Shown: positions 8,758 through 38,816 of the stretch, piece by piece | Layout of the letters: each line of letters begins with the position of its first letter | How positions within the stretch are numbered: the stretch's first letter is position 1 | Virus record (IMG/VR): IMGVR_UViG_2861079508_000003 | Coordinates: 1-39,249 of that record | Source of the DNA: a virus | Taxonomy: Duplodnaviria > Heunggongvirae > Uroviricota > Caudoviricetes | Length of the DNA stretch: 39,249 bases | Direction: 5' to 3' (one strand) | Translations under genes and position numbers: made by a program | Notes under the pieces: model-generated | Database searches by the model: none | What the model was told of the DNA's origin: nothing | Seen by the model: the letters and a program-made list of their open reading frames with translations, nothing else

Positions 8758-9186
8758 ATGACTCCGTGTTTGGAATTTGGCGGTTTAAAGGACAGCAAGG
8801 GTTATGGAAGGGTTTGGATTAATGGGAAAAAAGTATTTGCTCATAGATTTGCTTATTGTGTGGCAAAAGGGATCCAGCTTGAAGATATAGATGGCTTAGT
8901 AATTCGTCACGCATGTGACAATCCTTCTTGTATTTTACCTTCTCATTTATGTGCTGGGACAAGTCAGCAAAACGCAAATGACATGGTGGAGAGAAAAAGG
9001 CAGGCATTTGGAAGCAGGAATGGTAGGGCAAAATTAACTGAAGATGATGTAAGAAACATCATTAGTGAATATATACCAAGACACCCCTTATTCAACACAA
9101 GGGCATTATCAAAAAAATATGGAGTAACGCCAAATTATATAGCTGCTATTTGCAGAGGTGAAAAATGGAAGCACATAAAAAAATAA
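8758..9186 (+). CDS. HNH homing-endonuclease-like protein (HNH_3-type core plus C-terminal HTH; 142 aa)
   Basis: ..SKGYGRVWINGKKVFAHRFAY..VIRHACDNPSCILPSHLCAGTSQQNANDM.. fits the HNH_3 pattern; inserted between cII and the replication genes. Confidence 0.7.
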   Translation: MTPCLEFGGLKDSKGYGRVWINGKKVFAHRFAYCVAKGIQLEDIDGLVIRHACDNPSCILPSHLCAGTSQQNANDMVERKRQAFGSRNGRAKLTEDDVRNIISEYIPRHPLFNTRALSKKYGVTPNYIAAICRGEKWKHIKK

Positions 9187-9536: not shown

Positions 9537-10484
9537 ATGAGCAATACAGCAAAAATCTACGATTTCAGCGCCGCACACGAGCGCAGGAGCAACAGGATGG
9601 AGAACCAGAAAACTGGTTACATTCCGTTGTACCGGAGCATTCTGAAACAGTCATGGGCGAAAGATGTTTATCTTCGCACCCTGTGGGAAAACCTTCTCCT
9701 GAATGCCGCCAGAAAGCCATACAAAGCGAATTTCAAAGGTCATGAATGGCATCTGCAACCCGGTCAACTGGTTGTGACAGCAGCTGATTTAGGTCTTCAG
9801 TTATGCGACAGGCATGGCAAGCCGGCAAGCCGTGATCAGGTTGAGCGGATGCTTCAGGTTTTTGTGAAAGAGGGGATGATCTCCATTGATGGAGAGAAGC
9901 AAAAAGGTCGTGTGATCACCATCACAAATTACCATGAATACGCTCAAAAAATGGACAATTCACCCGCACATGAAGCCGCACAAACAACCGCACATGATGC
10001 CGCACATGATGAAACCAGTAATGGCGCGGCATTCAGCGCACATGCCGCACATGAAAGCGCACATGAAGCCGCACAAACAACCGCACATCATGAACAAGAA
10101 GGTATTAACAAGAATATAAATAATACCCCCCTACCCCCCAATGGGGGAGGCGATGGGCAGGTTAAACCTGAACGTCGCAAGGCAGAACGAATCGACTATG
10201 AATCCTTCCTGAACGCCTACAACACCGAAGTCGGTGACAGACTGCCACACGCTGTTGCGGTCAACGAGAAACGCAAACGCCGCCTGAAGAAAATCATCCC
10301 GCAACTGAAAACGCCAAACGTGGACGGTTTCAGAGCGTATGTCAGGGCGTTTGTACATCAGGCCAAGCCGTTTTACTTCGGAGACAACGACACGGGCTGG
10401 ACAGCTGATTTTGATTACCTGTTGAGGGAAGATTCGTTAACTGGAGTACGGGAAGGGAAGTTTGCAGACAGGGGGATTGCATGA
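9537..10484 (+). CDS. O: Replication initiation protein (lambda O / P22 gene 18 type; 315 aa)
   Basis: N-terminus [10 protein letters not shown].. parallels lambda O (MTNTAKILNF..); contains an internal iteron array and AT-rich block as in lambdoid ori; followed by a coupled helicase gene. Confidence 0.75.
9964..10092. repeat. Replication-origin iterons: about 9 copies of a 12-bp unit (CCGCACATGAAG and variants), then AT-rich block and GC-rich palindrome (about 10093-10150)
   Basis: Tandem 12-bp periodicity visible in the DNA, encoding the [10 protein letters not shown].. repeats; iterons, AT-rich stretch and palindrome are the lambdoid ori arrangement. Confidence 0.6.
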
Positions 10485-11857
10485 GACAGGATATCGAAGC
10501 GAGCGTTATCGGTGGCCTGCTGATTGGTGGATTAACACCAACTGCCAGTGACGTTCTGGCAACGCTGGAGCCGGAAGCGTTTTCAATTCCGCTCTACCGG
10601 AAAGCCTTCGAGGTTATCCGCAAGCAGGCGAGAAACAGAAACCTAATCGATGCGCTGATGGTTGCCGAGGCGTGCGGAGAGGAGCATTTCACGTCAATCC
10701 TGATGACCAGCAAAAACTGCCCGAGTGCCGCAAACCTGAAGGGATATGCCGGAATGGTCGCGGATAACTATCACCGTCGTCTGGTGCTGGAAATCATGGA
10801 TGAAATGCGTGAACCAATTCAGAGCGGAACTATCGACGCATCGAGTCAGGCGATGGATGAACTTGTAAAGCGTCTTTCAGCCATCAGAAAGCCCCGTGAC
10901 GAGGTAAAACCTGTACGGTTAGGGGAAATCATTACTGACTACACTGACACGCTTGACAGGCGTCTGAGGAACGGAGAAGAGTCAGATACCCTGAAGACCG
11001 GAATCGAAGAACTTGACGCCATCACCGGAGGGATGAACGCAGAAGACCTGGTGATAATCGCTGCTCGTCCTGGTATGGGGAAAACCGAACTGGCTCTGAA
11101 GATTGCCGAAGGCGTTGCAAGCCGCGTTATTCCTGGTTCTGACGTCCGGCGCGGGGTATTGATTTTCTCGATGGAAATGAGCGCATTGCAGATTGCAGAG
11201 CGAAGCATTGCCAACGCCGGGAGGATGTCGGTTAGCGTACTGCGAAATCCTGCATCGATGGATGACGAGGGCTGGGCACGTGTTGCTAACGGCATGAGTC
11301 AGCTTGCAGATTTGGATGTATGGGTAGTCGATGCTTCGCGGTTATCGGTCGAAGAAATACGCTCAATCGCAGAACGGCATAAGCAGGAAAATCCAAACCT
11401 GTCACTCATCATGGTGGATTATCTTGGCCTGATTGAGAAGCCGAAAGCAGATCGCAACGACCTCGCAATTGCTCACATCTCCGGAAGCCTGAAGGCGATG
11501 GCGAAAGACCTGAAAACACCGGTTATCTCCCTGAGTCAGCTTTCGCGCGATGTTGAGAAGCGACCAAACAAACGCCCGACAAACGCAGATTTGCGTGATT
11601 CAGGAAGCATTGAACAGGACGCAGACTCAATCATCATGCTCTATCGGGAAGCGGTATATGACGAGAACAGTAGCGCCGCGCCATTTGCTGAAATCATCGT
11701 GACGAAAAACCGTTTTGGCTCACTTGGTACGGTTTACCAGCGGTTCTGCAACGGACACTTTGTTGCATGTGACCAGGATGAAGCCAGACAGATTTGCACA
11801 GCATCAAATGCACCTGCTGCGCGTGGCAGACGATATGCACAAGGGGCGGACGTATGA
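10481..11857 (+). CDS. Replicative DNA helicase, DnaB family (P22 gene 12 type; 458 aa)
   Basis: N-terminal DnaB domain and C-terminal RecA-like domain with Walker A ([12 protein letters not shown]) and DnaB motifs (..[10 protein letters not shown].., ..[12 protein letters not shown]..); start overlaps the O stop. Confidence 0.9.
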
Positions 11858-11882
11858 CCATCTACATCACTGAGCTTGTAAC

Positions 11883-11914
11883 AGGCCTGCTGGTAATCGC
11901 AGGCCTTTTTATTT
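11883..11914 (+). terminator. Rho-independent terminator after the helicase gene (tR2-like)
   Basis: Perfect 8-bp stem AGGCCTGC/GCAGGCCT with 8-nt loop followed by TTTTATTT. Confidence 0.55.
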
Positions 11915-11942
11915 GGGGGAGAGTAATTGGAGGCTTTAAGAA

Positions 11943-12170
11943 ATGAGTTCGATGACTGAGCTTGTCCGCGCCGACTTTCAGGAGAACATTGGTCGTGCAA
12001 AGCGGTACTGGTCTGCTTCCAGACTTCCGACTGGCGAGAGACAGAAAAACGCCCCTAAGCCACGTATCTATCCGCGTGACCGCGTTCTTCGCCGGTTGGT
12101 TAAAATCGATAATGATTTTCAGTGTGACAGAATTATCCAGCAATTAGATTTGATGACTGATGATGAATGA
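11943..12170 (+). CDS. Hypothetical protein (75 aa)
   Basis: ORF between helicase and ninB in operon orientation; overlaps the ninB start. Confidence 0.4.
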   Translation: MSSMTELVRADFQENIGRAKRYWSASRLPTGERQKNAPKPRIYPRDRVLRRLVKIDNDFQCDRIIQQLDLMTDDE

Positions 12171-12585
12171 TTTCATTCTGCACGAAACCAATAAATCACA
12201 ATTCTGGTTAGTTCTGAAACAAATCCTCTCTACTGGCAAACGCTGGCGAATCAAAATATCTGAGTACCGTGAGAAGCGTACATTGTCACAAAACAATCTG
12301 CTGTGGATGTGGAATGCAGAAATAGCCGCACAGTTATCTGCTGCTTCTGCTGAAAACTTCACGCCTGAAGAGGTTCATGAGTGGCTGAAAGATATATTTT
12401 GTCCGGCTAAAAGGGTGACGATTTTTAATATTACACGATGCGTTAAATCAACACGTCAGCTTGATATTGGAGATATGCACAAATATCTGACCGATATTGA
12501 CCAGTGGGCGCATCAGAAGGGATTACGACTAACCATTCCTGATAATTGCGAGTACCGGGATCTAAAGGAGAGGCAAGTAGAGTGA
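12160..12585 (+). CDS. ninB: NinB-like recombination protein (141 aa)
   Basis: ..RTLSQNNLLWMWNAEIA.. resembles the NinB/Orf motif (lambda ..RSLDQNRKLWACL..); first gene of the nin region. Confidence 0.7.
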   Translation: MMNDFILHETNKSQFWLVLKQILSTGKRWRIKISEYREKRTLSQNNLLWMWNAEIAAQLSAASAENFTPEEVHEWLKDIFCPAKRVTIFNITRCVKSTRQLDIGDMHKYLTDIDQWAHQKGLRLTIPDNCEYRDLKERQVE

Positions 12586-13109
12586 CTATCAAATCAAATA
12601 CGCCAGCGTCAGATAGGTATCGGCTTATTGAGGATTATCTGTATTTAGACGGAGATACAGTCAGATACAAAAAGGACTCGCTAAAACACCCCAACCACAG
12701 CCACCGGGCAGGAGATGAAATTAAAACATCGATAAATGGATCTGGGTATAGACAGGTGTGTTTTGCAGGCATTCAGATGTTTGTTCACGTAGTTGTTTTT
12801 GCGCTGCACAACAAAAGAATGCCATTGAAAAATATTGACCATATTAACGGAAACAGGCTGGACAATTCCCCAAAAAATCTTAGGGAGGCAGGCCGGATAG
12901 CAAACAGCCGAAATCAGAAAACTAAGTGCAATAGCCGTTCTGGAATAAAAAATGTTTTATGGAACAAGCAAAAAAATAAATGGGCCGTTCAAGTGCGCAC
13001 AGATTTTGGCCGGTTGTATTTTGGGCTCTATGAAGATCTTGAACTTGCTTGTTTGGTTGCCAGTGAGGCTATCAACAAATATCACGGACAATATGCGAAG
13101 GTTGTATGA
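12546..13109 (+). CDS. HNH homing-endonuclease-like protein with AP2-type DNA-binding domain (187 aa; may start at in-frame GTG 12582)
   Basis: ..KNIDHINGNRLDNSPKNLREA.. (HNH_3) followed by ..NKWAVQVRTDFGRLYFGLYEDLELA.. (AP2-like); GTG at 12582 has an AAGGAG RBS and overlaps the ninB stop. Confidence 0.7.
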   Translation: MRVPGSKGEASRVTIKSNTPASDRYRLIEDYLYLDGDTVRYKKDSLKHPNHSHRAGDEIKTSINGSGYRQVCFAGIQMFVHVVVFALHNKRMPLKNIDHINGNRLDNSPKNLREAGRIANSRNQKTKCNSRSGIKNVLWNKQKNKWAVQVRTDFGRLYFGLYEDLELACLVASEAINKYHGQYAKVV

Positions 13110-13636
13110 TTAAGCATAAATCAGAAACACCAAAAGAAGTTAGAGACTGCTGGCAAACGCCGCTTTGGCTTTTTGATGCACTGGATATTGAGTTTGGATT
13201 CTGGCTGGATTCGGCAGCGAGCGACAAAAATGCTCTGTGTGCTCACTGGCTAACTGAGGCCGACGATGCGCTCAATTCTGAGTGGGTAAGCCACGGTGCA
13301 ATCTGGAATAACCCACCGTACAGCAATATCAGGCCGTGGGTGGAAAAAGCCGCTGAGCAGTGCATACAACAGCGACAGACGGTAGTTATGCTTGTGCCAG
13401 AGGATATGTCAGTCGGATGGTTCAGCAAGGCTCTGGAGAGTGTCGACGAAGTTCGCATTATCACTGATGGACGGATTAATTTTATCGAACCATCGACAGG
13501 GCTGGAGAAGAAGGGAAACAGCAAAGGCTCCATGCTGCTGATTTGGCGACCGTTCATCAGTCCTCGACGGATGTTTACTACCGTATCCAAAGCGGCATTG
13601 ATGGCGATCGGGCAGGGCGTCAGGAGGGCGGCATGA
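13106..13636 (+). CDS. dam: Phage DNA N6-adenine methyltransferase (Dam-type; 176 aa)
   Basis: NPPY catalytic motif (..[10 protein letters not shown]..) and overall resemblance to phage N-6-adenine methyltransferases; coupled to neighbours by ATGA overlaps. Confidence 0.75.
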
Positions 13637-13815
13637 GGCGACAGCGACGAAGTTTCACCGATATCATCTGCGAAAACTGCAAATACCTTCCAACGAAACG
13701 CTCCAGAAATAAACGCAAGCCAATCCCAAAAGAATCTGACGTAAAAACCTTCAACTACACGGCTCACCTGTGGGATATCCGGTGGCTTAGAGAACGTGCG
13801 AGGAAAACAAGGTGA
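13633..13815 (+). CDS. ninE: NinE protein (60 aa from ATG at 13633)
   Basis: [60 protein letters not shown] is near-identical to recalled lambda NinE. Confidence 0.8.
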
Positions 13816-13982
13816 TTGACCCAAATCGAAGTTACGAACAAGAAAGCGTCGAGCGAGCTTTAACGTGCGCTAACTGCGGTCAGAAGCTGCATGTGCTGGA
13901 AGTTCACGTGTGCTCCGATTGCTGCGCAGAACTGATGAGCGATCCGAATAGCTCAATGTACGAGGAAGAAGACGATGAATGA
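13812..13982 (+). CDS. ninF: NinF protein (56 aa, GTG start), not in ORF track
   Basis: Manual translation [56 protein letters not shown] closely matches recalled lambda NinF; GTG overlaps the ninE stop. Confidence 0.7.
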
Positions 13983-14697
13983 GTTAATAAATGGCAATGC
14001 CATCAAAATGACAAGCATTGAAATCGCTGAGTTGGTTGGTAAGCGTCATGACAATGTGAAACGTACCATCGAAACGCTGGCTAAAAATGGTGTTATCCGG
14101 CTTCCTCAAATTGAGGATTGTGGAAGAATCAATGGGTTAGGCTTAAATCAAAGTTTTTGTGTGTATGTGTTCGAAGGCGAACAAGGTAAGCGAGATAGTA
14201 TTGTTGTTGTTGCCCAGTTGTCGCCAGAGTTCACCGCTCGTCTTGTTGACCGTTGGCGAGAGCTTGAAGAAACTGCGGTTAATATCCCCAAAACGTTACC
14301 GGAAGCGTTGCGCCTTGCTGCTGATCTTGCTGAGCAGAAAATGCAACTGGAAAACCAGCTCGCAATTGCCGCACCTAAAGTTGAGTTTGCCGATCGAGTT
14401 GGCGAGGCCAGCGGAATTTTGATTGGAAACTATGCAAAGGTTGTTGGAATTGGTCCAAACAAACTGTTTGCGTGGATGCGCGATCACAAAATCCTTATTG
14501 CTTCAGGTTCCCGGCGCAATGTGCCAATGCAGGAATATATGGATCGCGGCTATTTCACAGTGAAAGAAACAGCGGTCAACACAAATCACGGAATACAGAT
14601 ATCGTTCACCACAAAAATCACCGGGCGTGGTCAACAGTGGCTGACCAGAAAGCTGCTCGATAACGGAATGCTGAAAGTAACAGGGGAGGCTGCTTAA
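13975..14697 (+). CDS. Rha-family / KilA-C-type phage regulatory protein (putative antirepressor; 240 aa)
   Basis: N-terminus ([35 protein letters not shown]..) fits the Rha pattern; C-terminal half resembles KilA-C antirepressor domains. Family from memory. Confidence 0.6.
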   Translation: MNELINGNAIKMTSIEIAELVGKRHDNVKRTIETLAKNGVIRLPQIEDCGRINGLGLNQSFCVYVFEGEQGKRDSIVVVAQLSPEFTARLVDRWRELEETAVNIPKTLPEALRLAADLAEQKMQLENQLAIAAPKVEFADRVGEASGILIGNYAKVVGIGPNKLFAWMRDHKILIASGSRRNVPMQEYMDRGYFTVKETAVNTNHGIQISFTTKITGRGQQWLTRKLLDNGMLKVTGEAA

Positions 14698-16240: not shown

Positions 16241-16753
16241 ATGAAAGAAATAAAATTAACGCCAGAAATGGTGCTTTCTGTTGTTGATTACAATCCATCA
16301 TCAGGCGACTTTCACTGGAGATGGAGGCAGGGGAGAGAGAGGACCACTTTGACATGGAACTCTCGTTTTGCTTTCAAGAAATGCTCATCAATAAATTCTG
16401 ATGGGTATTTAATGATTATGATTAATGGTAAAGCATACCCTGCTCACAGACTGGCATGGTTGATTGTTTATGGCACCATGCCCGATGGTTTTATTGATCA
16501 CATCAACAGGGTAAGAACAGATAACCGGATATCAAATCTTCGTCTTGTCACTCATTCCGAAAATATGCAAAACAGGAAAATTCAGAAGAATAATAAATCT
16601 GGATACCGTGGCGTGTCTTGGGATGCTAAGTACGGGAAATGGAGAGCAAGAATTAATGCGTCTGGAAAGTGTATTAACCTTGGATACCATGACACTGCCG
16701 AACTTGCCGCTGCGGCTTTTGAGGCAGCCAGAATGAAATATCATACCGTTTAA
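16241..16753 (+). CDS. HNH homing-endonuclease-like protein with AP2-type domain (170 aa)
   Basis: ..AHRLAWLIVYGTMPDGFIDHINRVRTDNRISNLRLVTHSENMQNR.. (HNH_3) plus ..SGYRGVSWDAKYGKWRARI..GYHDTAELAAAAFEAA.. (AP2-like); inserted in the late-operon leader. Confidence 0.75.
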   Translation: MKEIKLTPEMVLSVVDYNPSSGDFHWRWRQGRERTTLTWNSRFAFKKCSSINSDGYLMIMINGKAYPAHRLAWLIVYGTMPDGFIDHINRVRTDNRISNLRLVTHSENMQNRKIQKNNKSGYRGVSWDAKYGKWRARINASGKCINLGYHDTAELAAAAFEAARMKYHTV

Positions 16754-26032: not shown

Positions 26033-26510
26033 TTTAGTTCTTGCGGCATTACGTAAGCTCGGTGTGGCATCAAATGCCACGTTAACAGATGTCGAACCGC
26101 AGTCTATGGAAGACGGCGTCAACGACCTTGAAATGATGATGGCTGAATGGCTTGGCGGTGATGCGTCACCTGGTATCAACGTTGGCTACATTTTTGCTGA
26201 TGCAGATGTTGCTCCGGATCCGGGCGATGAGCACGGTTTATCAAATAACGCTATCAATGCCGTCATTTTCAACCTTGCCTGCCGCATTGCTCCAGATTAT
26301 GCGCTGGAAGCGTCTGCAAAACTTATAACCACTGCCAGATACGGGAAAGAGCGACTCGTCAAACTGTCTGCAATGGACAGAGCAAAAGCCGCTAAATGTA
26401 AGTCCGGTTATCCAAACCGTATGCCTGTTGGTAGCGGTAACCAGTTGGCGAAGTGGAACGGTTGGAATTACTTCCACCGAAAGGAACCTTGCGATAACGG
26501 GAGCGAATAA
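26010..26510 (+). CDS. Tail accessory / head-completion protein (P22 gp4 type; 166 aa)
   Basis: From ATG at 26010: [47 protein letters not shown].. closely matches recalled P22 gp4. Confidence 0.8.
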
Positions 26511-27929
26511 ATGCCGATTCAGCAACTTCCGCTTATGAAAGGTGTCGGCAAAGACTTTCGAAACGCCGACTATATCGACTATCTGCCAGTGAATATGCTG
26601 GCTACACCCAAAGAAATCCTCAACAGCAGCGGATATCTTCGCTCATTCCCGGGCATTGCCAAACGCTCTGACGTGAACGGCGTATCGCGAGGCGTCGAGT
26701 ACAACATGGCGCAGAATGCTGTTTATCGCGTGTGTGGTGGCAAGCTGTACAAAGGAGAAAGTGAAGTCGGTGATGTTGCCGGAAGTGGTCGTGTATCAAT
26801 GGCTCATGGTCGGACATCTCAGGCTGTAGGCGTTAATGGTCAACTGGTCGAGTATCGCTATGATGGCACGGTTAAAACCGTCTCAAACTGGCCTGCAGAC
26901 AGCGGATTCACGCAGTATGAGTTAGGCTCAGTCCGCGACATTACGCGATTACGTGGGCGTTATGCGTGGTCAAAAGACGGCACCGATTCATGGTTTATCA
27001 CTGACCCTGAAGACGAATCGCATCCTGACCGCTACAGCGCACAATATCGGGCAGAATCACAGCCTGACGGAATAATCGGTATCGGAACATGGCGAGACTT
27101 CATTGTCTGCTTTGGTTCATCGACGATTGAATATTTCTCCCTGACTGGTGCAACCACCGTTGGTGCCGCGTTGTATGTCGCACAGCCATCGCTGATGGTG
27201 CAGAAAGGTATTGCCGGGACTTACTGCAAAACGCCGTTTGCTGATTCGTATGCGTTCATCAGCAATCCGGCAACGGGTGCGCCATCTGTATACATCATCG
27301 GCTCCGGTCAGGTGTCACCAATCGCCAGCGCGAGCATTGAGAAAATCCTCCGCTCCTACACTGCTGATGAACTGGCTGATGGTGTGATGGAATCGCTGCG
27401 ATTTGATGCTCATGAGTTGCTGATTATCCACCTTCCGCGCCATGTTCTCGTGTACGACGCATCTTCAAGCGCCAATGGTCCTCAATGGTGTGTGCTGAAA
27501 ACAGGGCTGTATGACGATGTGTACCGCGCTATCGACTTCATTTACGAAGGCAATCAGATAACGTGCGGCGATAAGCTGGAATCGGTTACCGGCAAATTGC
27601 AGTTCGATATCAGCAGCCAGTACGACAAGCAACAGGAACATATTTTATATTCTCCTTTAATAAAGGCAGATAACGTTTTAATAAATGACCTTGAATTAGA
27701 AACATCTGGCGGCGTGTGTGATAGAATAGATAGAATATTTATATCAGCAACTACAGATGGAATTAATTACGGTCGTGAGCAAATGGTCGTATTACAAAAA
27801 CCATTTGTATATGACAATCGCGTTTTATGGCGAAAAGTTGGTCGAGTTAGACGCCTCATCGGATTTAAATTCAGAGTTATTGCAAAAGGTCCTGTTACAT
27901 TATCAGGCCTTTCTATTCGTGTAACATAA
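26511..27929 (+). CDS. Tail accessory / head-completion protein (P22 gp10 type; 472 aa)
   Basis: Same length as P22 gp10 and correct synteny (4-10-26). Confidence 0.8.
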   Translation: MPIQQLPLMKGVGKDFRNADYIDYLPVNMLATPKEILNSSGYLRSFPGIAKRSDVNGVSRGVEYNMAQNAVYRVCGGKLYKGESEVGDVAGSGRVSMAHGRTSQAVGVNGQLVEYRYDGTVKTVSNWPADSGFTQYELGSVRDITRLRGRYAWSKDGTDSWFITDPEDESHPDRYSAQYRAESQPDGIIGIGTWRDFIVCFGSSTIEYFSLTGATTVGAALYVAQPSLMVQKGIAGTYCKTPFADSYAFISNPATGAPSVYIIGSGQVSPIASASIEKILRSYTADELADGVMESLRFDAHELLIIHLPRHVLVYDASSSANGPQWCVLKTGLYDDVYRAIDFIYEGNQITCGDKLESVTGKLQFDISSQYDKQQEHILYSPLIKADNVLINDLELETSGGVCDRIDRIFISATTDGINYGREQMVVLQKPFVYDNRVLWRKVGRVRRLIGFKFRVIAKGPVTLSGLSIRVT

Positions 27930-27958
27930 ATCGAAACTAAAGGAGTAGATATGTTGAG

Positions 27959-27966
27959 TGAAAACG
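27959..27966. repeat. IS1 target-site duplication, left copy (TGAAAACG)
   Basis: Identical 8-mer directly flanks both IS1 ends. Confidence 0.6.
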
Positions 27967-27981
27967 GGTAATGACTCCAAC

Positions 27982-28485
27982 TTATTGATAGTGTTTTATG
28001 TTCAGATAATGCCCGATGACTTTGTCATGCAGCTCCACCGATTTTGAGAACGACAGCGACTTCCGTCCCAGCCGTGCCAGGTGCTGCCTCAGATTCAGGT
28101 TATGCCGCTCAATTCGCTGCGTATATCGCTTGCTGATTACGTGCAGCTTTCCCTTCAGGCGGGATTCATACAGCGGCCAGCCATCCGTCATCCATATCAC
28201 CACGTCAAAGGGTGACAGCAGGCTCATAAGACGCCCCAGCGTCGCCATAGTGCGTTCACCGAATACGTGCGCAACAACCGTCTTCCGGAGCCTGTCATAC
28301 GCGTAAAACAGCCAGCGCTGGCGCGATTTAGCCCCGACATAGCCCCACTGTTCGTCCATTTCCGCGCAGACGATGACGTCACTGCCCGGCTGTATGCGCG
28401 AGGTTACCGACTGCGGCCTGAGTTTTTTAAGTGACGTAAAATCGTGTTGAGGCCAACGCCCATAATGCGGGCTGTTGCCCGGCAT
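27982..28485 (-). CDS. insB: IS1 transposase InsB (expressed as InsAB' by frameshift in canonical IS1)
   Basis: [58 protein letters not shown].. matches IS1 InsB. Confidence 0.9.
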
Positions 28486-28679
28486 CCAACGCCATTCATG
28501 GCCATATCAATGATTTTCTGGTGCGTACCGGGTTGAGAAGCGGTGTAAGTGAACTGCAGTTGCCATGTTTTACGGCAGTGAGAGCAGAGATAGCGCTGAT
28601 GTCCGGCGGTGCTTTTGCCGTTACGCACCACCCCGTCAGTAGCTGAACAGGAGGGACAGCTGATAGAAACAGAAGCCAC
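28404..28679 (-). CDS. insA: IS1 protein InsA
   Basis: [68 protein letters not shown].. matches IS1 InsA. Confidence 0.9.
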
Positions 28680-28734
28680 TGGAGCACCTCAAAAACACCA
28701 TCATACACTAAATCAGTAAGTTGGCAGCATCACC

Positions 28735-28742
28735 TGAAAACG
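28735..28742. repeat. IS1 target-site duplication, right copy (TGAAAACG)
   Basis: Identical 8-mer to 27959-27966. Confidence 0.6.
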
Positions 28743-29264
28743 CAAAAGATATTCCTGGATATGAAGGTTTATATGCCGTAACAGAGGATGGGCGAGTATA
28801 TTCTCACTCACGTGTTGTTAAGGCTGCGCATGGCAGCACGCAACTCAGAAAGGGGCGGTGGCTAAAACAACACGAGAATAATAAAGGTTATCTATATTTG
28901 CCACTTAGTGTTGATGGAGTTAAAGTAAAATGGCTTGTGCATAGGCTTGTCGCTCTTGCTTTCGTCCCCAACCCAGAAGGCAAGCCGTTCATAAATCACA
29001 TAGATAACAACCCAAAAAATAATAATGCTTCTAATTTAGAGTGGTGCACTCAAAAGGAGAATATGAAGTATTGCTCATCTCAAGGCAGGGTGAAGTTCCC
29101 GGCTTTAAAAGGAGAAAATAATCCAATTTCAAAGCTCTCATATGAGCAAGTAATAGAAATAAAGAAATCAAAGGGAGTTAATCAAAGAGAGCTTGCTAAA
29201 AAATACTGTGTCAGTCAGACGGTGATTCACAATATCCAGTCTGGTAAATCGTGGAGGCATGTTA

Positions 29265-30113
29265 ATGGCTGATTCGAATCTCAATACACCTGTTATTGTT
29301 CAGGCGACGCGGCTCGATACATCAGTCCTTCCACGCAATATCTTCTCGCAGTCGTATCTGCTTTACGTTATCGCACAGGGCACTGATGTTGGTAACGTGG
29401 CTAACAAGGCCAACGAGGCCGGACAGGGCGCTTATGACGCACAAGTCAGGAACGATGAGCAGGATGTGATTCTCGCTGACCATGAGCAGCGAATTTCTGC
29501 TGCGGAAGCAACGCTTGTTAATCATGAGGAGCGAATCAGCCAGGCAGAATCAACTCTTCAGGAACATGAAACACGAATAGCTCAGAATGAAAGCGATATT
29601 GCGTCTCTTGATACCAGAGTTCAGTCGCTCGAATCGCAGGTTTCAGACCATGAAACGCGCATCGATGCTCTGGAGTATGCCACTAATCGCAAAAAGTCAG
29701 AGGTTGTTTACTCTGGCGTATCTGTAACCATCCCGACAGCGCCGACCAACCTTGTTAGCCTGCTGAAAACGCTCACTCCGTCATCCGGCACGTTGGCACC
29801 GTTCTTCGACACCGTTAACAACAAGATGGTTGTGTTCAACGAGAACAAAACCTTGTTCTTCAAGCTGTCGATCGTCGGGACGTGGCCCAGCGGAACCGCC
29901 AACAGGTCAATGCAGCTAACATTTTCCGGTTCTGTTCCTGACACACTGGTAAGCAGTCGCAACTCGGCGACAACAACCGACAACATCCTGTTAGCTACGT
30001 TCTTCAGCGTGGATAAAGACGGCTTTCTTGCCACAAATGGCAGTACGTTAACCATTCAGTCGAATGGTGCGGCGTTTACTGCCACAACCATCAAGATAAT
30101 CGCGGAGCAGTGA
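29265..30113 (+). CDS. Tail needle protein (P22 gp26 type N-terminus with a different C-terminal domain)
   Basis: [68 protein letters not shown].. matches recalled P22 gp26 N-terminus, then heptad-rich coiled coil; C-terminal about 130 aa differ from P22. Confidence 0.8.
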
Positions 30114-35741: not shown

Positions 35742-36281
35742 TCACCTACCATGATTCTCATGATAACCATAGGTCTTTTCAGCCTCACGCCTTACAGCAA
35801 TTGCATCATCGAGACACTTAAAGTATCCGAGATTAATGCGCTTCCCTGCGTCGCTAATATATGCCACCCACTTTTTATGGGTCTTATGCCATGAAACACC
35901 TGCGCACCCAGATGTATTGTTTGTGTATTTAGATTTGTTTTTTAGGTTTTCACCGAGACTAACTAGACGCAGGTTGTCTATTGAATTATTTAACCCATTA
36001 CCATCTTTATGGTCAATTTGCATTCCTGAAGGGATTTCACCATAAAACATTTCCCATATTATCCTATGGGCGGCGTATATTTTATCTTGATACCTGATAA
36101 TTATATAAGATGTTTTCCTGTTCTTGTCCTTGAATATATGTCCTGCAGGCTTTTCTTTAGAGATATTGAACATTTTGGGTCTTGAAAGATATTGGTCACT
36201 CCAGTACAGGAGTCCATCGTCTTTTAATACGAATACTTCGTTCCAGTTCATGTTAACCACCTTTAAATAAAGTTCACTCAT
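35742..36281 (-). CDS. HNH homing-endonuclease-like protein with AP2-type domain (179 aa)
   Basis: ..[47 protein letters not shown].. (HNH_3) plus ..[36 protein letters not shown] (AP2-like); occupies the position of arc/ant in P22. Confidence 0.7.
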
Positions 36282-36338
36282 TATACAAAAAACATGCTAG
36301 CAATGAATATTGCTTGCTTAACATATAGAGAAATTAAA

Positions 36339-38816
36339 ATGACAGATTCAATAAATGCCAATGTTGTAGTCAGCATGCCTTCGCAACTCTTCACTATGGC
36401 TCGTTCTTTTAAAGCCGTAGCTAATGGAAAGATTTATATCGGTAAAATTGACACTGACCCAGTAAATCCTGAAAACCAGATTCAGGTTTATGTGGAGAAT
36501 GAAGACGGTTCTCACGTTCCTGTTTCGCAGCCAATCATCATTAACGCTGCTGGATATCCGGTATATAACGGACAGATTGCCAAGTTCGTAACTGTGCAAG
36601 GCCATTCTATGGCTGTATACGATGCGTATGGTGCGCAGCAGTTCTATTTTCCTAATGTGCTGAAGTATGACCCCGATCAGCTACGGCCGCAATTAGAAGA
36701 TCCAGATGGCGCTAAAAAATATCCTGAGTTGCAGATGGCACGATGGAGAGATTGTGGAGATGTTAGAGGGTGGGGAGCAAAAATAGATGGGGTAACAGAT
36801 GATTCAGATGCTTTTATTAAAGCTTTAAACTCTGGAAGGTCGGTTATAACAATTCCTGAAGGAATATGCATCATCAAGAAGAATATTAACATTCCTGAGG
36901 GGTGTTCACTGGTTGGATCTGGCATTGATTATTGGGATACATATAGACCAGCGCCTGAAAGATTATTAAAAAGTTGGAGCAAAGGAACCCATCTTGTATT
37001 TACTGGTGATGGAGAAAAAAACAAATATTTTTTTAACATCTCTAATGAAAGACCGGTTAAAATTGTTGAAGGGATATCTTGTAAGTTCACTGAGTTTACG
37101 AATGAAGATTCTGTAGGTGTTACTCCTGCTACACCAAAAGCCATGAGCGTAGCTGTTAGTATCAACAGGGCATCACAGTTACGCAATCTGAGAATAATGG
37201 TAAGTAAAAATGGTATTGAAGGATACAATAACCCTGATTCTTATTCATTGGGTGATAACTGGGATATAGGGTTGCATGTATACGATAGCTGTGATTCAGT
37301 TATTGATAACGTACAGATTGTCGGATATTGGAGGGTAAAAGGACTACTACTGACAGAAAATGACGGGAGCCTTTCAATGAAGGGAAATCCTGAAAAAACG
37401 CACTTTAATAACGTTTATGTCCAGTCAGGAATCGCGATAAGGAATAGCCCTCAGATTGATCTTGTAAGTAATACTGAAAGCTCAGTGACATTTAAACATA
37501 AAAAGTCGATGAGAATAACTTCAGTTAAACAGTTTAAAATTGCTGGCAGTGAATCAGTATATACGTATTCAGATGCATCATTTGATGGAACTAACATCAC
37601 ACTATCTGGTATTTCTCCTGAAATACAAGGTACAATAAGTGTAATAAGGTTTCCGTCAATTGGTAATAATTTTAGCGGGACTGTTTTTGAGAATACAGTA
37701 GCCACTACTCTTGATCATACATCAGGTAAGCCATCAGAATACTTTGGCCTTCCTGCATCCTTTGCATTAGAGGTTGATGGTTTCCCTGTTCGTAATTTAA
37801 GGTTTGATAAATTCAAAGCTCAAACAACATTTGATAAAGGAAATTGCATTTTTGGTGATTGCCGTGATGTTAAAATAACATCATCTGAGTTTGAAAATGG
37901 AATTATGATTGCGTATAACCTGACCGAGACTCAGGGTTATACAGGAAATCTTAGATTTTTTGCTTCTGATCTTCAGAGCAGCGTTAACACAAGTGAGTTT
38001 AAACCAAGAGACGCATTTGTAGACAATAGACAAATAAAAACGGAGTTTACTGATGGTTCGTTCATCATAAAGAACTGGAGGCCTACAGATACAAAAATAC
38101 AATGGTCGTCTGGAGTAGATGCTATTGTTCTTAGAGAGTCACCTGACGAACAATCAAACGGAAATATTTCCGGGCATCACATTGATGGTAAAAGATGGAT
38201 TTATGTTAGTGGATATAACAAAGATATAAATATTTCATCAAGAAACTTAAGCGTAAAAAACCATGGTGATGACTCTGCAGTTATTAATATATTCGGCGAC
38301 TCTGGAAATATTGCCATTAAAGGTAATTTTTCACCAATTATTGATAACAGCAAATCTCTTGGTGCACCATCATTTAGATGGGCTCAGATTTATTCTGCAT
38401 CCGGGACTATAAGCACATCAGATGAAACACTTAAAACAATATATGACATTACTCAGGCAGAGCGTGATGCTGCGCTGGAAATAAAGGGAATTATATGCAA
38501 GTTCAGGTTTAATGAGTCGATTAATTTTAAAGGATTGGAGTTATCAAGGTATCATTTTGGAGTTGGCGCTCAAACCGTAGGAGATATTCTTAGAAAGCAT
38601 GGTTTAAATCCTGAGCAATATGCTTTTTGGTGTTACGATGAATGGCCAGACGTATGGGATGAAGAGGTGATAACTGAAGAGAGCACAGATCCTGATACAG
38701 GTGAGAAAATTTATTCTCAATATAAAACAGGAAATATGATTCTTGTAAAAAAAGCAGGTGGACGCTACGGAATTCGTTATGACGAATTGGCTATGTTTAT
38801 ATTAATGGCAATGTAG
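36339..38816 (+). CDS. Tailspike protein: P22-type N-terminal head-binding domain, divergent receptor-binding domain, C-terminal intramolecular-chaperone-like domain
   Basis: From ATG at 36339: [60 protein letters not shown].. matches recalled P22 gp9 for about 115 aa; the rest differs; C-terminus (..[29 protein letters not shown]..) resembles auto-cleaving chaperone domains. Confidence 0.8.

Follow-up and report, generated by a model that had tools for sequence, protein, structure and literature searches.

The stretch of DNA analyzed here, positions 1–39,249 of IMG/VR virus record IMGVR_UViG_2861079508_000003 (Caudoviricetes; hereafter the window, 39,249 nt in full), carries a dam gene at 13106–13636 on the + strand that very probably encodes a single-domain GATC methylase of the HP1-Dam/T1-Dam/M.EcoVT2Dam family, without a restriction enzyme, in the nin region of a P22-like lambdoid phage or prophage. 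The HNH endonuclease gene beside it belongs, in the same reading, to a separate selfish element. The first 25 kb of the window most closely resemble the P22-like coliphages Dewey, CurroJimenez, IME10 and CUS-3 (about 96–97% identity over 40–50% of these 25 kb). As a methylase, dam is of an ordinary, already characterized phage type and the feature is already known; the remodelling of its start by the HNH gene is a minor new observation on a known kind of selfish element.

Identity and predicted specificity of the methylase

13106–13636, + strand: dam, phage N6-adenine DNA methyltransferase, 176 amino acids (aa), ATG start (PF05869 / TIGR01712)
13199–13222, + strand: motif I-like FWLDSAAS, residues 32–39, presumed S-adenosylmethionine-binding loop (from motif order)
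13310–13321, + strand: motif IV NPPY (aac cca ccg tac), residues 69–72, catalytic adenine-binding motif

An earlier note, made from the sequence alone, had described this open reading frame (ORF) as an orphan Dam-type adenine methyltransferase, and the ORF is real, with 176 aa encoded on the + strand. Its product matches the Pfam family PF05869, "DNA N-6-adenine-methyltransferase (Dam)", end to end (221.3 bits, E 8e-66, profile positions 1–167 of 169) and the NCBIfam equivalog TIGR01712, phage N-6-adenine-methyltransferase (263.9 bits, E 4e-79, positions 2–165 of 165). The match to methyltransferase models on which the earlier note had staked its reading was therefore found, with both scores above their cut-offs (28.1 and 97.05 bits, respectively). 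The protein also matches phrog_111 (E 6e-87), its best PADLOC models are those for 'orphan methyltransferase', and these profile matches are far above chance.

The NPPY motif, which had also been pointed out, is present at residues 69–72, and in an alignment of 38 dam homologues (57–94% identity) its P70, P71 and Y72 show no variation, with N69 conserved at 90% or more. Within FWLDSAAS, residues F32, D35 and A37 are invariant in the same alignment, and the presumed role of this segment as the cofactor loop follows the order of motifs in N6-adenine methyltransferases. An AlphaFold model made from the alignment is of medium confidence (predicted local distance difference test (pLDDT) 72, predicted template modelling score (pTM) 0.75) and forms one alpha/beta domain, with low confidence at residues 33–43. 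The protein has the class I S-adenosylmethionine methyltransferase fold in a single domain of about 170 aa, with no separate target-recognition domain. A search of the PDB with the Dam sequence gave chance-level matches only (E 0.24 or worse), and so no solved relative by sequence. On the opposite strand, an ORF of 193 aa (13243–13824, − strand) spans most of dam and ninE; it is without a credible family match and is probably spurious rather than a gene.

We take M.EcoVT2Dam to be orf32 of the Stx2 phage VT2-Sakai, on the basis of annotation. Orf32 is the sole annotated methyltransferase in the VT2-Sakai record and is identical to the dam protein at 167 of 172 residues, with all five differences falling within residues 7–13. 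We strongly infer from sequence that the dam product methylates adenine in GATC in an S-adenosylmethionine-dependent manner, because its residues 14–176 are identical to VT2-Sakai orf32 and GATC is given as the known target of M.EcoVT2Dam, of prophage VT2-Sa, in PMC6602927 (citing Radlinska & Bujnicki 2001). The VT-2 and HP1 phage Dam enzymes are cited with primary references in PMC7556043. The term Dam-type is thus well chosen, given the two full-length profile matches and a core identical to that of an enzyme reported to be GATC-specific.

The VT2-Sakai gene is the same gene in the same slot of the nin region, between ninB and ninE, and is shared by 933W, Sf6 (gene 52) and HK97 (gp62). The 933W copy, whose product is identical to the dam protein at 166 of 172 residues, is labeled "similar to methylases of bacteriophage HP1 and T1" in its own record. 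Unlike M.EcoVT2Dam, the dam protein of the window has had its first 13 residues replaced, and an HNH gene separates ninB from dam; in VT2-Sakai, 933W, HK140 and Dewey no gene intervenes, and the stop of ninB directly overlaps the start of dam. Haemophilus phage HP1 orf13 (173 aa), the sole annotated methyltransferase of HP1, resembles the dam protein in its PF05869 membership (251 bits), size, NPPY motif and lack of a separate target-recognition domain, but is distant in sequence (37% identity) and comes from a different type of phage, where it ends the HP1 early operon. The T1-like phage Dam enzymes belong to the same family at about 33–35% identity, while the alpha-class GATC methyltransferases, E. 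coli Dam and T4 Dam, share the reaction and the target motif.

The methylase was also described as an orphan, and this was upheld when about 45 ORFs from all parts of the window were compared with Pfam and/or PADLOC models and no restriction-enzyme family was matched, and also by the same gene being solitary in hundreds of phages. The scanned ORFs are those of a standard lambdoid/P22-like genome (Erf, Abc2, N, CI, CII, O, a DnaB-type helicase, nin genes, Q, terminase, tail and ejection proteins, and a tailspike), together with several HNH_3 genes and an IS1. The part of dam from position 13146 onward recurs at 95% identity or more in 1565 of the 5426 complete E. coli genomes (about 29%; 2192 places), and the gene is also found in 244 phage records, including those of 933W, Sf6, HK97, HK140 and many Stx phages, so that in both phage records and E. 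coli genomes it is widespread without an HNH neighbor. By tBLASTn, a relative was found in 2001 phage records. It is a routine gene, of a family with curated models, characterized members and routine annotation. For annotation, the use of the result is that dam can be labeled as a predicted GATC-specific orphan outside any defence system.

An HNH cassette in the 5' end of dam

12160–12585, + strand: ninB/orf-family recombination mediator (phrog_72, E 3e-34; weak Pfam NinB match; 99.8% identical to Dewey)
12582–12607, + strand: remnant of the uninterrupted dam start, GTG ACT ATC AAA TCA AAT ACG CCA GC, identical to the Dewey dam start
12582–13109, + strand: HNH_3 endonuclease gene, 175 aa, putatively of homing type (Pfam, phrog_99), its first nine codons being the original dam start
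12586–12592, + strand: CTATCAA, left copy of a 7 bp direct repeat, used in the HNH deletion of E. coli E2
12608–13144, + strand: inserted cassette, 537 bp, in place of 10 bp of the uninterrupted allele (ends set by BLAST against Dewey and HK140)
13069–13075, + strand: CTATCAA, right copy of the repeat (match H222 starts at cassette nt 462, window position 13069)
13106–13144, + strand: replacement dam 5' end, codons 1–13, travelling with the HNH cassette (boundaries of the phage matches)
13633–13815, + strand: ninE (PF05322, 143 bits), overlapping the dam stop (ATGA)

The flanks of the cassette are 97–99.8% identical to phages that lack the HNH gene. In the alignment with Dewey, identity is 99.8% as far as 12607 and resumes at 97% from 13145, which sets the break points at 12607/12608 and 13144/13145. 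The dam start of Dewey reads VTIKSNTPA..., and in the window these same codons open the HNH ORF, with homology ending after 12607. The likely HNH start is GTG at 12582 (the ORF list gave TTG at 12546), where the original dam start overlaps the ninB stop (GTGA), and the Prokaryotic Genome Annotation Pipeline (PGAP) picks the same start in identical E. coli prophage copies (WP_064638127.1). At the other end, all 244 phage dam matches begin at query nt 39–40, or window 13144–13145, and the first 39 nt of the window dam occur in none of these 244 records. The N-terminus of HNH-free dam reads VTIKSNTPAHDKD..., and a cut of the empty allele by the HNH protein would fall near AAATACGCCAGCA^CACGACAAGGAC. 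By these comparisons, the HNH gene is inserted at codon 9/10 of dam, where it has taken the old start and supplied a diverged replacement start, with the methylase staying intact.

The ATGA overlaps reported on both sides of dam are there: the HNH stop (TGA, 13107–13109) falls inside the dam ATG at 13106, and the dam stop (TGA, 13634–13636) inside the ninE ATG at 13633. The flanking genes were likewise named correctly, with HNH_3 upstream (E 5.9e-10) and NinE downstream, but the HNH gene is a selfish insertion in the 5' end of dam and not an incidental neighbor. Its product also matches the phrog_99 HNH endonucleases (E 3e-42) and has no PADLOC match. In HNH-bearing alleles of two E. coli prophages (L006, 2027–2554; L007, 2050–2577), PGAP starts dam at an ATT that lies 3 nt 3' of the ATG (528 versus 531 nt), while the 176-aa version is also found as protein cluster P0001 with 528 members; public annotation seems inconsistent on where dam starts.

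The cassette was found in 33 of the 5426 E. coli genomes, where the adjoining ninB is of one or the other of two types and several contexts occur downstream. None of the 415 phage records with a match to this stretch has it. The replacement dam 5' end occurs in 39 of the E. coli genomes, 33 with the HNH gene and six without it, and the HNH-free alleles read in three of these six are deletion scars with differing end points. That of E. coli E2 (locus L010) reads ATGACTATCAA|CAAATATCACGG, with the two CTATCAA copies joined and 37 nt of the HNH 3' end kept. The scar of FDAARGOS_944 keeps about 22–26 nt of the HNH gene and that of E308 about 9 nt, and in the latter the ninB stop overlaps the dam ATG again. 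Within the E2 scar (L010, about 1198–1242), the old dam start opens a mini-ORF of 14 codons, MTINKYHGQYVRVE, which may preserve translational coupling to dam because its stop overlaps the replacement dam ATG.

The HNH gene is present or absent at one precise site in near-identical genes, and its target is altered in the carrier. It bears the signature of a free-standing homing-type endonuclease gene rather than of a restriction partner, a reading based on the break points, the distribution, the altered target, the deletion scars, and the HNH_3 and phrog_99 membership taken together. Speculatively, the HNH enzyme would cut the uninterrupted dam 5' end and spread by repair, and the cassette would take over the start codon of dam together with the coupling of its translation to ninB. 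It is possible, though here we are somewhat more hesitant than convinced, that the enzyme is an active homing endonuclease directed at the lambdoid dam 5' end, and that the cassette is made harmless by a functional substitute start that cannot be cut, in a cycle of gain and loss. The loss phase would then be seen in the six E. coli genomes that have the substitute start but no HNH gene.

The arrangement resembles that of the free-standing HNH_3/AP2 homing genes of phages ('intronless homing'), where a small HNH_3 ORF lies between or within conserved genes, as here; in both, the gene is patchy among near-identical genomes, the carrier target is altered and deletion scars are seen. It is unlike the known free-standing homing genes in that the cassette reuses the start codon of its target gene and supplies a substitute start, and no description of such a start-reusing, start-replacing arrangement was found in the literature searched. 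Relatives of the HNH protein, searched with one genome per species, amounted to a single 36%-identical fragment in Enterobacter. Among phages, tBLASTn pointed to no donor: the full-length matches are about 35–38% identical, and the highest identity among the matches listed is 46%, in a partial match. No AP2 domain was reported in the protein by Pfam at a relaxed threshold; its C-terminal part can nevertheless be aligned with two HNH proteins of the window that contain AP2, which makes AP2 a tentative assignment here. The insertion illustrates how a selfish nuclease gene can get into a coding sequence, leave that gene whole and later decay, and it could be used as a marker for recombination among lambdoid prophages.

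Some type II restriction enzymes have an HNH active site, and the HNH gene and dam lie next to each other on one strand with a translational overlap, as they might if they formed a two-gene restriction-modification pair, with an HNH nuclease and a protecting methylase. We consider this explanation extremely improbable, since the HNH gene is an insertion inside dam that is absent from all 244 dam-bearing phage records, its product belongs to HNH_3 and phrog_99 with a C-terminal part of apparent homing-endonuclease (AP2-type) architecture and without a PADLOC restriction-enzyme match, and four other HNH_3 genes occupy unrelated positions in the window. The HNH gene has also been deleted at least three times, with dam intact each time. 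As a candidate restriction partner it was rejected on joint inheritance with dam, which was not observed (1565 genomes with dam versus 33 with the HNH gene, and three alleles that retain dam after HNH deletion). Alternatively, replacement of the N-terminus by the cassette may have left the methylase inactive or with a changed specificity; residues 1–13 are unlike those of every HNH-free allele, and the N-terminus is poorly modeled (pLDDT below 50 at residues 1–7). This too is very unlikely, given that S6 and T8, invariant in the family, and the nearly invariant D14 are retained, while the other residues among 1–13 vary across the 38 homologues, and that the protein is identical to its VT2-Sakai counterpart from residue 14 onward. 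The 176-aa allele, moreover, is the one represented by the 528 member sequences of cluster P0001, and a dam ORF is annotated beside the HNH gene in 33 of 33 HNH-bearing genomes and is intact in the three translated scar alleles. An intact GATC methylase beside a selfish HNH gene remains the preferred reading.

Expression and proposed role

11883–11906, + strand: terminator-like hairpin followed by a T run, 5' of the nin genes, in the position of lambda tR2 (consensus scan only)

The location of dam in a nin region, as earlier stated, is confirmed by matches to its surroundings, which run NinB, HNH_3, dam, NinE, NinF, a Roi/Ant-type protein, YbcO, RusA, NinH and Q. The hairpin at 11883–11906 falls between the helicase gene and the nin genes. 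A scan of 11800–14100 found a single promoter-like site, just 3' of the dam stop; neither dam itself nor the scanned sequence upstream of it contains one. On the model of lambda tR2, dam is expected to be a delayed-early product needing N antitermination, and would be made after infection or induction, translationally coupled to its neighbors. Under laboratory conditions, the nin genes are reported to be dispensable (PMC5630979).

E. coli host Dam already methylates GATC, and lambda DNA from lytic growth is only partly Dam-methylated. With moderate confidence, we propose that the phage enzyme maintains full GATC methylation of fast-replicating phage DNA where host Dam is limiting or absent; GATC-directed, methylation-sensitive nucleases, and MutH, would then find progeny DNA marked as 'self'. 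Such a top-up on replicating phage DNA appears more plausible than a broad reprogramming of host expression. The earlier remark that phage orphan methyltransferases can alter host gene expression needs qualifying here, as broad reprogramming from the prophage is unlikely because host Dam methylates the same motif and dam, in the early rightward operon, comes after a terminator-like hairpin. As a methylase, the gene is of little consequence, and it brings a Dam-positive host no new motif.

The enzyme might instead serve mainly to control host or prophage genes epigenetically in the lysogen, and not to modify phage DNA in lytic growth. Two reports are in favor of such a role: the Phi24B dam homologue was detected as expressed in lysogen cultures (PMC3342100), and host Dam is reported to be needed for stable 933W lysogeny, in work cited in the same paper. 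Detection in lysogen cultures can, however, stem from spontaneously induced cells. With no new motif to be gained from dam in a host that already methylates GATC, and with the gene placed behind the hairpin and with no promoter-like site of its own upstream or within, we regard this role as unlikely and favor methylation of replicating phage DNA.

GATC is scarce in the window as a whole, with 74 sites where base composition predicts 152 and a Markov model 197, and a gap of 3.65 kb (26217–29870) is free of it; CTAG (11 sites) and CCWGG (32 sites) are likewise scarce. Three GATC sites are clustered at 9834, 9878 and 9914, in the O-like replication gene.

Other features of the window

Five HNH_3 genes are present in this one 39 kb genome, at 8758–9186 (+), 12582–13109 (+), 16241–16753 (+), 28721–29272 (+) and 35742–36281 (−), unusually many homing-type genes for a lambdoid phage. 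Among the four not associated with dam, two carry AP2 domains and one carries NUMOD4. When aligned with the dam-associated HNH protein, three of the others are 15–28% identical to it (the NUMOD4 protein was left out of this comparison).

A complete IS1 of 768 bp lies at 27967–28734, with 23 nt terminal inverted repeats and the InsA and InsB ORFs on the − strand, and is flanked by an 8 bp direct repeat, TGAAAACG, at 27959–27966 and 28735–28742. It sits five codons into a gene that starts with the ATG at 27952 and continues as the NUMOD4-HNH ORF. Because IS1 interrupts this gene, the window is suggested to be a resident prophage rather than a freely propagating phage.

The tailspike gene (36294–38816) encodes a P22-type head-binding domain together with weak, sub-threshold matches to End_tail_spike and to Peptidase_S74, an intramolecular chaperone. 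These endosialidase-type domain matches make the tailspike resemble that of CUS-3, the K1-capsule-specific prophage that is among the closest relatives of the window.
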